From positions 21,025 through 85,024 of IMG/VR virus record IMGVR_UViG_3300037249_000287: 64,000 nucleotides of DNA; one strand, 5' to 3'. Within the stretch, counting starts at the first letter, position 1. Each line of letters opens with the position of its first letter. The notes below the pieces were generated by a model. It saw only the letters and a list, made by a program, of their open reading frames with translations, ran no database searches and had not been told where the DNA came from. Of this stretch, positions 3,967-39,513 are shown piece by piece. Both the position numbers and the translations under genes were made by a program. Origin of the DNA: a virus. Lineage: Duplodnaviria; Caudoviricetes.

Positions 3967-4350
3967 ATGACGGTATTAGAATGGCTTAAAGCATCCACGA
4001 CATACACTCGTTTTGACGAGCAGAATTTTGTCAAGATAGCATTAGAAAGGGGTGTTGACCCAGAGGATGATGCCTATGGCGAGAATGTGACGAAACGTGA
4101 CAGGGAACTGATGACGGCAGACATCATATTTGCAGCCGTGCTTTTAAGTCCGTCTAATACCTCGTCATTGCAACAGTCGCACAATGGCTATCAAAAAACC
4201 ATTGGCTCTGAACAGGACTTTTACCAAGATGAGAAAATCAAGTATGCAATACGTATGTACAAACTATACGATGACGATAAGGCTGAGATATTAGAAGGCA
4301 TACAGAAGAAGATTAGGTTCATACCGATTGAAGACGTTGACAGGCTATGA
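3967..4350 (+). CDS. Head-tail connector/adaptor protein
   Basis: 127 aa helical protein directly after the capsid gene (synteny). Confidence 0.55.
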   Translation: MTVLEWLKASTTYTRFDEQNFVKIALERGVDPEDDAYGENVTKRDRELMTADIIFAAVLLSPSNTSSLQQSHNGYQKTIGSEQDFYQDEKIKYAIRMYKLYDDDKAEILEGIQKKIRFIPIEDVDRL

Positions 4351-16010: not shown

Positions 16011-16060
16011 ATAACTTAAAAGGATTTGGATATGTTTAGGATATTGTGTATCTTTGCATT

Positions 16061-16133
16061 GTGGATAGGGTGGTTTGGCCACCATCCGATAAAGGGCAAG
16101 TCTGTCGCCCTTTCCACAATTTCAATGACAGAC
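16061..16133 (+). ncRNA. Candidate structured leader, class A (three-way junction plus pseudoknot), copy 1
   Basis: Starts 5 nt after promoter TATCTTTG (16049-16056). P1 GTGGA/TCCAC, P2 GGTGG/CCACC, P3 AGGGC/GCCCT; loop GTCTGTC pairs with GACAGAC 16127-16133. Covaries with the copy at 60655. Confidence 0.65.
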
Positions 16134-20619: not shown

Positions 20620-21291
20620 TTAAGATTTATTACCATAAAGTTCATTAAGTGCATCCGATATACTCTCACCGTTAGCTTCTTTCATGCGCTTGTATTCTTC
20701 AAACGTGATGGTGTTCTTTTTGCTTTCCTCGATAAGCTTGTCATTGCGCATGCGTTCAATGTCGGCATAGTAGTGTTCGCGTTCGACCAAGAACTTGTTC
20801 AAAGCCTCGGTTACAACAAGTGCATAAGAGTCGCCTCCATAAAACCTTCCATATCTACCACCTTCAAAGCGTGTAATAAACAGCAAAAACTCGACCACCT
20901 TTAACGTCTTGTAGTTCGCATAGATGCTACATGCAAGGTTGTAGACCTGTTCTTTCGAGAACCTATCATTCGTAACGCCAAGAAAAATGAACATGCCCTG
21001 TAGGATGTTGTACAGCCAATTTGCAGAAGAACCTTTGCCGTATGTGATGTCTATGCGTACAAACGTAGGACTGTCTCGTCTAAAGCACGCCATCGCATCT
21101 TGTACGAATGCGTTCTTGTTAGCATAAGAGAATTTGTTACTAAGCTGTGTAAAGCTACCATACCTCGTCGTTATCTCCGTCACGAACGTCGGCTTGTTGT
21201 TGGTTGCCAATGCGGTCTGTGAGCTGCTGACTGAATGCGTTTGCTTCTGCAACAGTTCGCCTAATCTTGTCGGTGATTGTTTCTCTTCCAT
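20620..21291 (-). CDS. Replication-module protein (DUF6633-like)
   Basis: Follows the initiator gene; YKTLKVVEFLLFITRFEGGRYGRFYG motif. Confidence 0.55.
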   Translation of the reverse strand: MEEKQSPTRLGELLQKQTHSVSSSQTALATNNKPTFVTEITTRYGSFTQLSNKFSYANKNAFVQDAMACFRRDSPTFVRIDITYGKGSSANWLYNILQGMFIFLGVTNDRFSKEQVYNLACSIYANYKTLKVVEFLLFITRFEGGRYGRFYGGDSYALVVTEALNKFLVEREHYYADIERMRNDKLIEESKKNTITFEEYKRMKEANGESISDALNELYGNKS

Positions 21292-21898
21292 AATTCACGT
21301 TATTGTTGTTGTTCTTTCTATTCTTAGCCCATGTGGTGCAAGCCATCTTCCAGTTCTTCATCGGATTCTTTCCGACTTTCCATCCGTTACTTTCGTAGAA
21401 AGCATAGAAAGCCTCCGCGTCAAACGTGTAGCCTTTTTCAAGAATGTGCGCTTGAATCTCTTGTATTGTTGGCTTTACAAATCTTTTTTCTTTTTTAGAA
21501 GATATGATAGTATCTTCTTTTTCTTTTATTATTTCAGTCTTTATTTCTTTTATGTCTTTATTTATTTGTGGTTGATTATTACCGTGTCGGAAATTTTCCG
21601 TGTCGGAAATTTTAGTGGCTTTAATAGTGTATTTAACAGCACCAAAAGTTCCATTTTTGTTACTTTGAGAACCTTTAACCACCCATCCGCTTGCCACCAA
21701 TTCGTTTATGTACTTACGCAATGTGTCTACACTATATCCAATTTCTCGTGCCATTGGTTCAAGATAAAAATTCCAATCATCTGGCTTGCATACCATAAAC
21801 ACATAGACAAACCTTGCTCTATCAGATAGAGTTTTGTCAAAAATCAAATCACGAGGAACAATTTGATAATTATTTAATTCATTGTGTATGTTTGCCAT
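21155..21898 (-). CDS. Replication initiator / replisome organiser (N-terminal HTH, C-terminal DnaD-like domain)
   Basis: IVPRDLIFDKTLSDRARFVY...DTLRKYINELVASGWV; FVKPTIQEI...AEAFYAFYESNGWKVGKNPMKNWK. Overlaps the next gene by 137 nt. Confidence 0.75.
   Translation of the reverse strand: MANIHNELNNYQIVPRDLIFDKTLSDRARFVYVFMVCKPDDWNFYLEPMAREIGYSVDTLRKYINELVASGWVVKGSQSNKNGTFGAVKYTIKATKISDTENFRHGNNQPQINKDIKEIKTEIIKEKEDTIISSKKEKRFVKPTIQEIQAHILEKGYTFDAEAFYAFYESNGWKVGKNPMKNWKMACTTWAKNRKNNNNNVNYGRETITDKIRRTVAEANAFSQQLTDRIGNQQQADVRDGDNDEVW
21582..21613. repeat. Tandem 16-bp direct repeat inside the initiator gene (candidate origin iterons)
   Basis: CCGTGTCGGAAATTTT twice, next to an AT-rich/pyrimidine-rich tract at about 21480-21570. 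Confidence 0.6.
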
Positions 21899-21900
21899 AA

Positions 21901-22341
21901 CTATTTATTGTTTATAAATTCAAAAATACCATTCAATGTAGAAATTTTATCTTTTTCTGCAACATAGATTTCACCGCAAAAAACATAATATTCTTTAACA
22001 TTATTCATTATCCAACGCTTTATTATATCTTTTCTAACCCTCAAACCGTTATGCGTAAGTATTTGTTTTAATCGCATAGAACTACACGCATTTGGCAACT
22101 GTTTATTGTAAAGGGGTTGGTATTTGGCTATATATTTCATTTCCATTTCATCCAATTTTTCAGACTTACACTTTATTGTTCTTATAGTGTCAAAGTCCTT
22201 GTCAGAAGGATGGCATAAAATTCTTTTCAAGCCATATTCTGTTTGACCCACATAAACAACTTTTTCGTTTTTCAATAAGAAATAAATACAAGGGAAATAC
22301 ACATCTTGTAATTTGTACTCATAATCAAATTTTTCTTCCAT
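21901..22341 (-). CDS. GIY-YIG family endonuclease-like protein
   Basis: PCIYFL...VVYVGQT...KRILCH...EMKYIAKYQPLYN. Start moved to ATG 22341 because the upstream part is the leader RNA. Confidence 0.7.
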   Translation of the reverse strand: MEEKFDYEYKLQDVYFPCIYFLLKNEKVVYVGQTEYGLKRILCHPSDKDFDTIRTIKCKSEKLDEMEMKYIAKYQPLYNKQLPNACSSMRLKQILTHNGLRVRKDIIKRWIMNNVKEYYVFCGEIYVAEKDKISTLNGIFEFINNK

Positions 22342-22485
22342 ATATGACCGCTTTAAAAGCCTAATGAGCGATTTACTCGTTGCGGTCATTCAACTTTCAA
22401 TCGCCCATCTTGGCAAAAATTGTTATAACATTATCTTTTATCCTTTGCGTCTTAAATGACCGTCAACGCATCGAATGGATTTTCT
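22342..22485 (-). ncRNA. Kissing-loop leader (class B) of the GIY-YIG gene
   Basis: Promoter TATCTTTG 22490-22497. 5' hairpin TGCGT/ACGCA with loop CGGTCATT; 3' hairpin GTTG-AATGACCG-CAAC inside GGGCGATT/AATCGCTC with a GAAA/GAGTA internal loop. Confidence 0.7.
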
Positions 22486-22539
22486 TTTGCAAAGATACTA
22501 CTTATATACCGTAGTTCCAAATATTTTAGTGTTATTTAA

Positions 22540-23310
22540 TTAAAACAATGTTAATTGCCGTTTTTCTCTTGCTATTCTATCGCAAGCAACCTTATGGTAA
22601 TCTTCATTGAGTTCTATTCCGATAAAATCCCGCTTTTCGCGTATGGCCGCAACACAGGTACTGCCAGAGCCGCACGTATTATCAAGCACCAAATCGCCTT
22701 TGTTTGTATATGTACGTATAAGGTATCTAAGCAAATCGACGGGCTTTTGTGTGACATGATACTTGTCTTTGTCGCGCTTAAAATAAAGCAGATTTGTCGG
22801 GTATCGTGTGCCGTCGTTGTTTGTTGTGCATCGTTTAACAGTAGAGCGCAAAACAGACGTTGGCGTTCTTTCTCCTCTGTCTCTTATGTATGGCTCAAAT
22901 CCTTCTCGCATCTGTGGATTGTATGTCATGTGACAATCTTTTGTTGTCGGCGACGTAGAACCGAATCCAAAGACGCAAACATCTTCTGTTGTCTTTATCG
23001 GCTGATAATGCGAGTTCAGAAAGTTAGTACCGTTTTCCTTTACCCATACCCAGTTGTATTTATACATTTCAAGATTGCTTGAAATAAGCTTTGTGGTGAA
23101 CGGCTGTTGTGCAAACAGTACAATTGCACCATCTGGCTTTATTATGCGCTTGTAGGCGTTCCAAAGCGGCTCAAACGGAATCATGCAGTCCCATTTACAG
23201 GGTGTTGTGTTGTACGGCAAGTCGCAAAGTATCAAATCAACGCTTTTGTCGTCTATACCCTGCATTACGTCAAGACAGTCACCATTGTAGATTTTGTTAA
23301 GTTCTAACAT
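22540..23310 (-). CDS. DNA methyltransferase, N6-A/N4-C beta class (orphan)
   Basis: IYNGDCL...ILCDLPY (motif IV) precedes HVTQKP and VLDNTCGSGST (motif I). Confidence 0.9.
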   Translation of the reverse strand: MLELNKIYNGDCLDVMQGIDDKSVDLILCDLPYNTTPCKWDCMIPFEPLWNAYKRIIKPDGAIVLFAQQPFTTKLISSNLEMYKYNWVWVKENGTNFLNSHYQPIKTTEDVCVFGFGSTSPTTKDCHMTYNPQMREGFEPYIRDRGERTPTSVLRSTVKRCTTNNDGTRYPTNLLYFKRDKDKYHVTQKPVDLLRYLIRTYTNKGDLVLDNTCGSGSTCVAAIREKRDFIGIELNEDYHKVACDRIAREKRQLTLF

Positions 23311-23323
23311 AATTAAAATAAAG

Positions 23324-23851
23324 TTAGTTGTTGTTATTGCTGACAAAGATAAAGTTATATCCATGAATAGATTTTCGCTCTCCTCTTGCAACCCTCGCCA
23401 CCGTATTATGTGTTATGCCAAGAACTTCTTCTGCTTCACGGCAAGATTTATACACAATACCATTCTGTAAACATAAGACTCTTTTGTATTTGTATTCTTT
23501 GTTTTCCCTATTATAATATTGGGTATTTCTATCTGCCCAACGTAGATTGTCAATGCTATTATTAGTGCGATTATTTCTGTCTATATGGTCTGGTGAATAG
23601 CCATCCAAATCTCCTTCTGGCATAAATGTTTGCAAAACAATTTCGTGCAGTTTAAAGCGATGGCATTTAAGTGAAAGCGTTATCGTTCCTACGGAATCTG
23701 GTTTGTATTTCGCTATTACGCCTTTTCTTTTGAAACGGCCAAGGTTTGAGACTTGATACAACCCTTTTGGGAATACATACTCTTTTACTTTTTCCCATCT
23801 ACTGTTTCGAGAATGTAATTTTAAAACATCTTTCCAAATTTCCTGTTCCAT
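23324..23851 (-). CDS. NUMOD4-HNH-NUMOD1 homing endonuclease
   Basis: EIWKDV...LYQVSNLGR; DHIDRNNRTNNSIDNLRW; C-terminal YKSCREA...VARG...GYNF. Confidence 0.85.
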   Translation of the reverse strand: MEQEIWKDVLKLHSRNSRWEKVKEYVFPKGLYQVSNLGRFKRKGVIAKYKPDSVGTITLSLKCHRFKLHEIVLQTFMPEGDLDGYSPDHIDRNNRTNNSIDNLRWADRNTQYYNRENKEYKYKRVLCLQNGIVYKSCREAEEVLGITHNTVARVARGERKSIHGYNFIFVSNNNN

Positions 23852-23970
23852 GTGTTAATAAAAACATTGCAATCGCAACTACTAAGGTGCTCTACTACCT
23901 GTTCGTTGCGACTGCAAGTATATTGTTGTTCGTATTTGCGGCTAATGTAGAGCGCACCGCATTGAACTAT
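23852..23970 (-). ncRNA. Kissing-loop leader (class B) of the HNH gene at 23851
   Basis: Promoter TACCTTTG 23975-23982. TGCGG/CCGCA loop GCTCTAC kisses AGGT-AGTAGAGC-ACCT; GAAC/TAGTA internal loop; 12-bp outer stem. Confidence 0.7.
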
Positions 23971-24021
23971 AATGCAAAGGTACGAAAAATTACCGAATCA
24001 GCAAAATGTTTTAATTGTTTT

Positions 24022-38539: not shown

Positions 38540-38583
38540 CCAAAAAATTTGGTTTTTACAAAAAGTTTTTGTATCTTTGCATC

Positions 38584-38694
38584 GTAAATATGACGCTTAA
38601 CTCCTACTAAGCATCAACAAACTTAACAATGGTAACGAGTAAATCTGCGGAGGTAGGAGACCGCATTTTGAAAGTTACCTTTTGTTTTATACTT
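38584..38694 (+). ncRNA. Kissing-loop leader (class B) of the HNH gene at 38695
   Basis: Promoter TATCTTTG 38572-38579. GCTTA/TAAGC loop CTCCTAC (38601-07) kisses GTAGGAG (38653-59) in TGCGG/CCGCA; GAGTA/GAAA internal loop; GGTAAC/GTTACC outer stem. Confidence 0.75.
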
Positions 38695-39513
38695 ATGGAA
38701 GAGATATGGAAAGATGTAGTTGGTTACGAAGGTTTGTATCAAGTAAGCAACTTCGGAAATGTGAAAAGCGTAAAAAGGGTTATTAAGAGAGCCAAAAATA
38801 CACATTTAAGTGTAAAAGAACGATTATTGAAAATACATCAAAACCACAAGGGGTACAAAATGGTTTGTTTGTCAAAGCAAGGCAAACAAAAATTTTGCAC
38901 TATCCATCGCCTTGTTGCAAAAGCGTTTATTCCAAACCCTCAAAATTTACCTCAAGTTAATCACAAAGACGAAGATAAGATGAATAATCATGTAGACAAC
39001 TTGGAGTGGTGTACAAATAAATATAATATAAACTACAATAATGGTGCTGCATTTAAAAGAGGTGTTAAAACAAAAAAGGAAAGATATAACTGGAAGGATG
39101 TTTGCGAAAGAATGATTGAGACTAAAACAAAAAACAATGTTTACACAAAACCAATTCCAGTTAATCAATTTACATGGGATGGTGTCTTTATAAAAAGATT
39201 CCGTTCTTCAGAACAAGTAAGTCGGGAGCTTGGAATAAATGGCACACACAGAGTAGCACAAGGCTTAAATAGGCACGCTGGTGGATATATCTGGTTGTTT
39301 GACGAAGATATTGACAAAATAAAAGACAGAGTGCTGAATAAAAAACCCGAAAAAAGAATAGTTCAATATGACAATAATGGTAATTTTATAAAAACGTGGG
39401 AAAATCAAAAAGAAGCGTCCAAATATTTAGGATTAACTACTTCGTCATTATGTGCTTGCTTGCGTGGGCGCACAAAAACATGCGGTGGTTATATTTGGAA
39501 GTATTATGAATAA
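38695..39513 (+). CDS. NUMOD4-HNH endonuclease with two NUMOD1-like C-terminal repeats
   Basis: MEEIWKDVVGYEGLYQVSNFGNVKS; IHRLVAKAFIPNPQNLPQVNHKDEDKMNNHVDNLEWC. Confidence 0.9.
   Translation: MEEIWKDVVGYEGLYQVSNFGNVKSVKRVIKRAKNTHLSVKERLLKIHQNHKGYKMVCLSKQGKQKFCTIHRLVAKAFIPNPQNLPQVNHKDEDKMNNHVDNLEWCTNKYNINYNNGAAFKRGVKTKKERYNWKDVCERMIETKTKNNVYTKPIPVNQFTWDGVFIKRFRSSEQVSRELGINGTHRVAQGLNRHAGGYIWLFDEDIDKIKDRVLNKKPEKRIVQYDNNGNFIKTWENQKEASKYLGLTTSSLCACLRGRTKTCGGYIWKYYE

Follow-up and report, generated by a model that had tools for sequence, protein, structure and literature searches.

A phage leader RNA with two mutually exclusive loop pairings at a replication-initiator slot: a candidate gate on translation initiation

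The window (the whole stretch of DNA analysed here, 64,000 nucleotides long) runs from base 21025 to base 85024 of a viral record that is 85,024 bp long and has direct terminal repeats. All the genes around the leader described below lie on the minus strand. A 198-nt spacer separates the second of two methyltransferase genes from an ORF of 146 aa, and a replication-initiator-like gene begins 2 nt after the stop codon of this ORF. The genes are the following:

24666-24022, minus strand: DNA methyltransferase
23851-23324, minus strand: HNH/NUMOD nuclease
23391-22540, minus strand: second methyltransferase
21901-22341, minus strand: GIY-YIG-type nuclease gene (146 aa), using the start codon of the leader
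21155-21898, minus strand: replication-initiator-like gene (HTH_36 N-terminal domain and conserved C-terminal domain)

The assignment of the 146-aa ORF to the GIY-YIG proteins relies on several lines of evidence that are weak but consistent. The Pfam match to GIY-YIG (E 0.0074) is below the cut-off and the PDB profile match is to the UvrC N-domain (E 0.019). The AlphaFold model has a pLDDT of 74.8, and the top 9 Foldseek matches are all to the UvrC GIY-YIG domain (probability 1.0, TM 0.55-0.60). Furthermore, IYF...VYVG, R40, E67 and N79 are invariant among the homologues of the ORF, and its close protein relatives are 63-68% identical and share the same N-terminus. The product of 21155-21898 matches HTH_36 in Pfam and, in PHROGs, replication initiation protein / DnaD-like helicase loader. 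Initiator-like proteins from the window and from L062-L068 have a conserved C-terminal half (phrog_15768) and swapped N-terminal domains (HTH_36, DUF6291 or O-like); the homology breaks among their genes fall inside the gene.

The leader that lies between a -7 promoter box and the ATG at 22341 is a predicted folded RNA of ~145 nt, transcribed from the minus strand. It comprises the following parts:

22490-22497, minus strand: -7 promoter box, Bacteroidota-type, of the form TAnnTTTG (pattern match)
22446-22470, minus strand: hairpin 1, with a stem of 5-6 bp and a loop of 13-15 nt
22455-22462, minus strand: copy 1, CGGTCATT, in the hairpin-1 loop, the 5' 'decoy' partner of loop 2
22421-22430, minus strand: perfect linker palindrome of 10 nt (from the sequence)
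22365-22407, or 22359-22414 including its closing helix, minus strand: hairpin 2 (RNAalifold and alignment)
22412-22414 with 22359-22361, minus strand: 3-bp helix closing hairpin 2
22383-22390, minus strand: loop 2, AATGACCG, the terminal loop of hairpin 2
22352-22358, minus strand: U-run then A-run, directly 3' of the closing helix and kept in the alignments
22344-22351, minus strand: copy 3, GCGGTCAT, the start-proximal partner of loop 2 (inverted repeat, 8/8)

The consensus of the Bacteroidota -7 box has been described (PMC7366714), and such a box is found upstream in every homologous leader; in the window, transcription probably starts at about 22485. Hairpin 2 is made of an outer stem of 9-10 bp, a GAAA / GAGUA internal loop that is sarcin-ricin/loop-E-like by sequence, an inner stem of 4 bp and a loop of 8 nt. 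The U-run and A-run at 22352-22358 are reminiscent of a terminator tail and, in a pseudoknot, would serve as the linker; hairpin 2 with its U-run was not called by a simple terminator scan. Copy 3 is followed by a 2-nt spacer and then by the ATG (22341-22339, minus strand). Loop 2 is complementary, on the minus strand, both to the hairpin-1 loop and to this start-adjacent 8-mer, and the positions and sequences that the initial annotation gave for the loop and its two partners proved to be correct on that strand. Beyond the 7-nt core, copy 3 extends to 8 nt in the window, as the G at its 5' end is matched by the C that closes the inner stem. Between the -7 box / start region (22485-22496) and a U-rich stretch before hairpin 2 (22407-22418), 11/12 positions are complementary; in most leaders, base-pairing of an A-rich 5' end with this stretch could close a junction around hairpin 1. 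Two homologous leaders have an insert of 60-90 nt that forms a hairpin between the -7 box and hairpin 1 (L015, ~1290-1350; L052, ~4030-4110), the rest of the leader being unchanged despite this insert.

The ATG at 22341 was retained as the start codon because every protein homologue begins at the same MEEKFDYEY. An N-terminally extended ORF (162 aa) from the in-frame ATG at 22389 was rejected: this codon lies inside loop 2 and is not conserved. Such an upstream ATG exists only where the core happens to contain ATG, and the homologues start at MEEKF.

Fourteen leaders were compared, from 12 IMG/VR phage contigs (including the window) and 2 metagenome contigs: the window, L014, L015, L050, L052, L053, L054, L056, L057, L058, L062, L063, L068 and L080. 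L014 and L015 were obtained by a metagenome scan and have the same GIY-YIG gene and the same leader; the 11 further leaders came from scans of IMG/VR with DNA patterns and from a scan with the neighbouring initiator protein. L051, a duplicate of L052, was left out of the count. A covariance model (R1) built from 10 leaders recovers all 13 that were then in the set, with E from 1e-34 to 1e-8; L080 was added after this recovery test. In the 85-kb genome, model R1 finds only one leader with a copy 3. The 14 leaders belong to a group of uncultured Bacteroidota-type phages. No match to Rfam 15 reached the gathering score in the window, and none was obtained at E up to 10 in 22300-22560. The phage GenBank collection gave no match by blastn. 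Among representative prokaryote genomes, no protein relative was found and a pattern scan returned only 3 chance matches, so that the host was not identified in this way.

MAFFT alignments of the leaders keep all three elements in register. The 7-nt core occurs in seven versions (CGGTCAT, CGGTCAC, CAGTCAC, CTGCTAT, CAGCTAC, CTGCTAC and CAGCGAC), each of which is found in the same form in copies 1 and 3, with its exact complement in loop 2, throughout the 14 leaders. At least 7 single-position changes, transversions included, have thus each been made in three places. For the kissing helix between the two loops, changes on both sides are seen in 4/8 pairs (23 such cells) and no cell is unpaired in the 7 core pairs, whereas 20-49% of cells are paired in controls slid by 1-3 columns. 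For the helix of loop 2 with copy 3, changes on both sides affect 4/7 core pairs (22 such cells); pairing is seen in 88 of its 91 cells, the others being 1 unpaired cell and 2 gaps, versus 16-54% paired in slid controls. Because the 14 leaders fall into few lineages, independent changes amount to about seven positions and not to dozens. The pairing with copy 3 is only 6 bp long in L014, L052 and L058.

The start-proximal copy, whose conservation in homologues the proposed switch depended on, therefore tracks the loop through 7 cores in 14 leaders. It lies 0-6 nt from the ATG in 14/14 leaders, though the downstream genes differ. Nothing is shared between the sequences that flank copy 1 and those that flank copy 3; beyond the core, copy 3 does not copy copy 1 in the window, L015 and L054 and makes extra base pairs with the context of the loop, which fits pairing and not two identical sites for one trans-acting factor. 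Calculated duplex energies range from -10.9 to -14.1 kcal/mol for the kissing helix and from -9.6 to -14.1 kcal/mol for the copy-3 helix, and are nearly equal within each leader. We define here a copy-3 subfamily by a complement of loop 2 of 6-8 nt that is located 0-6 nt 5' of the ATG and tracks the loop. Judged by comparison between sequences, both pairings, hairpin 2 and a module boundary at the ATG are real features of this subfamily.

Short 7-8-mers recur randomly in any genome, and the three copies could thus be a chance repeat in one sequence. CGGTCAT is present 4 times in 64 kb on both strands, about 4.5 copies being expected by chance. However, 3/4 of these copies are inside the 119 nt of the leader, and the chance of a perfect loop complement in the 30 nt before the ATG is ~0.002 for at least 7 nt and ~0.0002 for at least 8 nt. 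With this local arrangement (probability ~0.002) kept with covariation in 14 leaders, the likelihood of a chance repeat is negligible, and in our view the comparison of homologues already refutes this reading. In its nested minimum-free-energy fold, the leader of the window gains no stability over shuffled sequences (z = -0.87). An extended duplex of 13 bp in this nested fold, which joins the copy-1 flank, loop 2 and the inner stem, was also considered and rejected. It holds in the window, L015 and L050 and is absent in L057, L062 and L063; therefore, the conserved core is only 7-8 bp.

The stems of the two hairpins are conserved as well. Hairpin 2 and its closing 3-bp helix were predicted independently by RNAalifold on the MAFFT alignment, with compensatory changes in 10/16 pairs; in its stems, 100% and 97.5% of the alignment cells are paired and 7 pairs have changed on both sides. 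The stem of hairpin 1 is kept in 14/14 leaders, with two changes on both sides, in L063 and L080. The GAAA / (G/A)AGUA columns are kept in 10 close leaders and are degenerate in L062, L063 and L068. The perfect 10-nt palindrome of the linker was seen in the window, L014, L015, L050, L052-L054, L056-L058, L062, L063 and L068, in five versions that do not follow the type of the downstream protein. Since its central four bases are always self-complementary, a simple hairpin is no explanation for it.

A reading at the level of DNA was also weighed, in which the three 7-mers would be iterons or operators for a phage protein, for example the replication initiator, and would change together with its specificity. 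An initiator gene with a variable N-terminal DNA-binding domain does adjoin the leader, and the repeats are both direct and inverted, as iterons can be. This reading is nevertheless very improbable and was rejected, as the cores do not follow protein type: the same core stands before different proteins, and the orthologues L014 and L015 have different cores. Moreover, copies 1 and 2 are placed exactly in hairpin loops, the compensatory changes and G-U pairs of the stems are valid only on the sense strand, and the promoter and the ATG delimit the module.

The genes that follow the leader differ among the 14 contigs:

Window, L014 and L015: GIY-YIG
L052: HNH
L050, L054, L056, L057 and L062: HTH_36 / DnaD-like initiators
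L058, and L068 by N-terminal resemblance only: DUF6291 form
L053: O-like form
L063 and L080: uncharacterised N-terminal form

In L014, L015 and L052, the initiator gene comes immediately after the nuclease gene. L058, L062, L063 and L080 have no GIY-YIG or HNH gene behind the leader. In blastn comparisons between L058 and the window, the promoter and whole leader are 87% identical; this homology is lost after the first four bases of the ORF and is regained within the C-terminal half of the initiator gene. Since the leader directly heads initiator genes in relatives without GIY-YIG and the homology with L058 ends at the ATG, the nuclease gene can be viewed as an insertion behind a resident leader. 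The initial annotation had assigned the leader to the GIY-YIG gene and the promoter to its cassette; this attribution does not hold, as the same promoter and leader are found directly ahead of initiator genes in these relatives. From this comparison of sequences, the leader is a portable module whose end is marked by the ATG of a replication-initiator slot, and the GIY-YIG and HNH genes have been inserted between it and the initiator gene.

Four nuclease genes sit between the start codon of the leader and the initiator gene (window 21901-22341, L014 138-575, L015 1501-1941 and L052 4255-4803), the latter being 0-4 nt away or overlapping. The start codon of the leader looks like a preferred landing place for genes of homing-type nucleases. 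L063 is a close relative of the window phage whose HNH cassette is 89% identical to that of the window; homology between the two is interrupted near the transcription start and is recovered within the initiator gene, and L063 has a diverged leader and no GIY-YIG. The end of its HNH cassette (to 660) overlaps the promoter segment of the leader (632-718), so the second methyltransferase (window 22540-23391) is absent there. This gene is an indel between the two phages.

Sister kissing leaders are present in the same phage (window 23867-23982, 25830-25936 and about 38570-38695) and in other contigs (L065, L066, L067, L016 and an HNH leader at L063:2-127). The present leader has the features of this kissing-loop / loop-E family: a -7 box, an end at the start codon, covarying loops of at least 7 nt and a GAA / AGUA loop. 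Like it, the sisters have a -7 box, hairpin 1, hairpin 2 with a GAA/AGUA internal loop, a U-run and an ATG, together with a 7-bp loop-loop complementarity that is private to each leader. Unlike it, they have a shorter tail, with the U-run directly 3' of hairpin 2. The third copy is absent in the three sisters of the window, in L065-67, in L016 and in L063:2-127, all of which were read. Therefore, the two-partner arrangement is not a mechanism for the whole family, as had been suggested; copy 3 marks a subfamily. In two sister leaders read at the corresponding position (window 23867-23982 and L065), no linker palindrome was found. A motif at window 16049-16133 has a different sequence and fold and is not alignable with the copy-3 leader. 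L016 carries at 419-556 a leader of the sister type, in which the two loops match over 7 bp and both a GAA/AGUA internal loop and a T-run are present. The gene that follows it encodes a distant GIY-YIG relative and has a strong Shine-Dalgarno sequence, so the wider leader family seems to extend to hosts that use Shine-Dalgarno sequences.

The initial annotation had proposed that translation would depend on whether the transcript starts at the promoter of the cassette. This was not borne out. Hairpin 1 is located downstream of the -7 box and is thus carried on own-promoter and read-through transcripts alike, and no further complement of copy 1 lies upstream. An internal promoter between hairpins 1 and 2, which would yield transcripts without the decoy, was tried and rejected since its candidate -7 box is not conserved: an internal TAnnTTTG box occurs in some leaders, but the window and L058 have AATTTTTG in its place and L062, L063 and L068 have none. 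This pattern is only mildly enriched in the window, with 110 matches versus 80.5 expected.

The kissing and start-proximal pairings exclude each other because they use the same seven loop bases. As both are conserved and share these bases, a two-state RNA, as proposed in the initial annotation, is their natural reading; the maintenance of both helices by selection and their nearly equal energies point to two alternative states. In one of them (state K), loop 2 would kiss the identical 7-mer in the hairpin-1 loop, leaving the start region single-stranded and translation possible. In the other (state P), loop 2 would pair with the 7-mer located 0-6 nt 5' of the AUG and form an H-type pseudoknot of ordinary geometry, whose first loop is 1 nt, whose 7 bp stack on the inner stem and whose A-rich linker is ~20 nt long. 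This pseudoknot would pair about -13 to -1 and could block initiation by ribosomes that have no Shine-Dalgarno anchor. Since transcription reaches copy 1 and loop 2 before copy 3, the RNA should enter state K before state P; removal or occupation of hairpin 1 would then release loop 2 onto the start region. The GIY-YIG homing-type nuclease, inserted exactly at the start codon of the leader, would be expressed under its control.

No Shine-Dalgarno sequence was found within 20 nt before any leader ATG. Bacteroidetes mRNAs are without Shine-Dalgarno; secondary structure, together with A at -3, -6 and -11 to -15, modulates their initiation (PMC6847099; PMC7366714). State P is taken as the off state because there is no Shine-Dalgarno pairing, local structure and upstream adenines being what tunes initiation; it is plausible that burying ~-13 to -1 blocks initiation in such a host. 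The regulatory use of the mutual exclusion, the sign of state P and the order of folding are what we infer from this arrangement. We therefore favour, with somewhat better than even confidence, a leader at the replication-initiator slot whose two exclusive pairings would act as a gate on initiation, off in state P, with the nuclease gene inserted behind it.

It is rather unlikely, in our opinion, that the leader has a fixed fold and no regulated switch. The kissing interaction would then be an aid to co-transcriptional folding or termination, copy 3 would replace copy 1 on every transcript that reads through, and the resulting static pseudoknot would provide constant low translation or protection of the mRNA. 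No ligand, protein or second promoter is evident, the U-run comes after hairpin 2 and its closing helix like that of terminator-type sister leaders, and nucleases and initiators are needed only at low dose, all of which would suit a fixed fold. However, the near-equal energies in every leader and the retention of a full decoy of 7-8 bp fit competition better, and the sister leaders dispense with copy 3.

In its logic, the leader comes closest to the repZ genes of IncI1/IncB plasmids. According to the outline given in PMC8053102 (citing Asano and Mizobuchi 1998), a loop of the repZ leader has two alternative partners, an antisense RNA and a start-proximal region, and its pairing with the latter forms a pseudoknot on which translation depends. 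As outlined there, one loop in the leader of an initiator mRNA has two competing partners and the outcome sets initiator translation; a pseudoknot partner by the initiation region and a loop-loop kissing partner are thus common to both systems. In the present leader, the competitor is in cis (hairpin 1) and is not a countertranscript; no TAnnTTTG box for an opposite-strand transcript was found on the plus strand within 22300-22560. Furthermore, the pseudoknot abuts the AUG with no Shine-Dalgarno context and would thus probably repress. No conserved ORF for a leader peptide was seen in the leader sequences, and there is no sequence homology between repZ and this leader.

This best-known analogue counts against the sign that we assign to state P, since its pseudoknot, as described in that source, activates. 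The same pairings might thus work with the opposite sign, the pseudoknot of loop 2 with copy 3 being the activator and hairpin 1 a built-in inhibitor that replaces the plasmid antisense RNA. In favour of this reversal, RepZ translation is described as requiring the pseudoknot while the antisense RNA competes for the loop (PMC8053102), and the genes controlled here are also replication initiators. We nonetheless consider it unlikely: copy 3 is 0-6 nt from the AUG, in a stretch that the 30S subunit must hold single-stranded, there is no Shine-Dalgarno for a pseudoknot to present, and no conserved inhibitory structure that it would open was seen, the downstream coding sequences being different.

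Other known systems resemble the leader in part. The homing-endonuclease genes of T-even phages (I-TevI/II/III, segB and mobE) have local RBS-sequestering hairpins over the Shine-Dalgarno sequence, relieved by a late promoter inside the hairpin (PMC2988022). As in these genes, RNA structure at the initiation region is predicted here to limit translation of a phage nuclease. Unlike them, the leader has a loop-to-tail pseudoknot and a cis decoy instead of a local hairpin over a Shine-Dalgarno sequence and no conserved internal promoter, and it is part of the replication gene rather than of the nuclease gene. In hok mRNA, the opening of the start region depends on three cis elements (tac, ucb and fbi) whose pairings exclude one another. 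The likeness with the present leader lies in the three short cis elements and their exclusive pairings; the trigger of hok is 3' processing together with the antisense Sok RNA, and hok has no kissing hairpin pair.

To our knowledge, very few post-transcriptional control devices are known for Bacteroidota and their phages. The leader would add to these a compact, modular element whose 3' boundary coincides with the start codon. Since two competing pairings are backed by natural compensatory changes, the gate hypothesis is directly testable by triple swaps between natural codes. If the leader gates the replication initiator, it would be a phage counterpart of the antisense/pseudoknot copy control of plasmids, with the competitor in the same RNA. 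The leader also shows where homing-type nuclease genes (GIY-YIG, HNH) settle, namely between a probably regulated leader and an essential gene, where they would borrow its control. Moreover, the leader could serve as a portable, orthogonal expression gate in Bacteroides engineering.

Several leaders in one genome always carry different codes, and the pairing code turns over far faster than the backbone. For instance, L050 (8586-8735) and L056 (5099-5246) are identical at 110/119 columns (92%) outside the code and at 9/21 inside it, 4/7 code positions differing, each in all three elements. For code versus backbone, the Fisher p is 6e-7 on all 21 columns, but only 4 of 7 positions are independent. 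With a slim chance of being right, the 7-nt core may thus be a specificity code under diversifying selection, like the incompatibility loops of plasmids. Leader RNAs, or fragments ended at the U-run, would then act in trans on copy 3 or on hairpin 1 of other leaders, providing copy control or exclusion both in cis and in trans. If so, synthesis of the initiator (and of the nuclease) would be throttled in proportion to the copy number of the phage genome, and co-infecting phages with the same code would interfere in replication control. The fast turnover of the code, the different codes within a genome and the palindrome leave room for such trans contacts and for a copy-control or incompatibility function; the always-palindromic linker could dimerise the RNAs.
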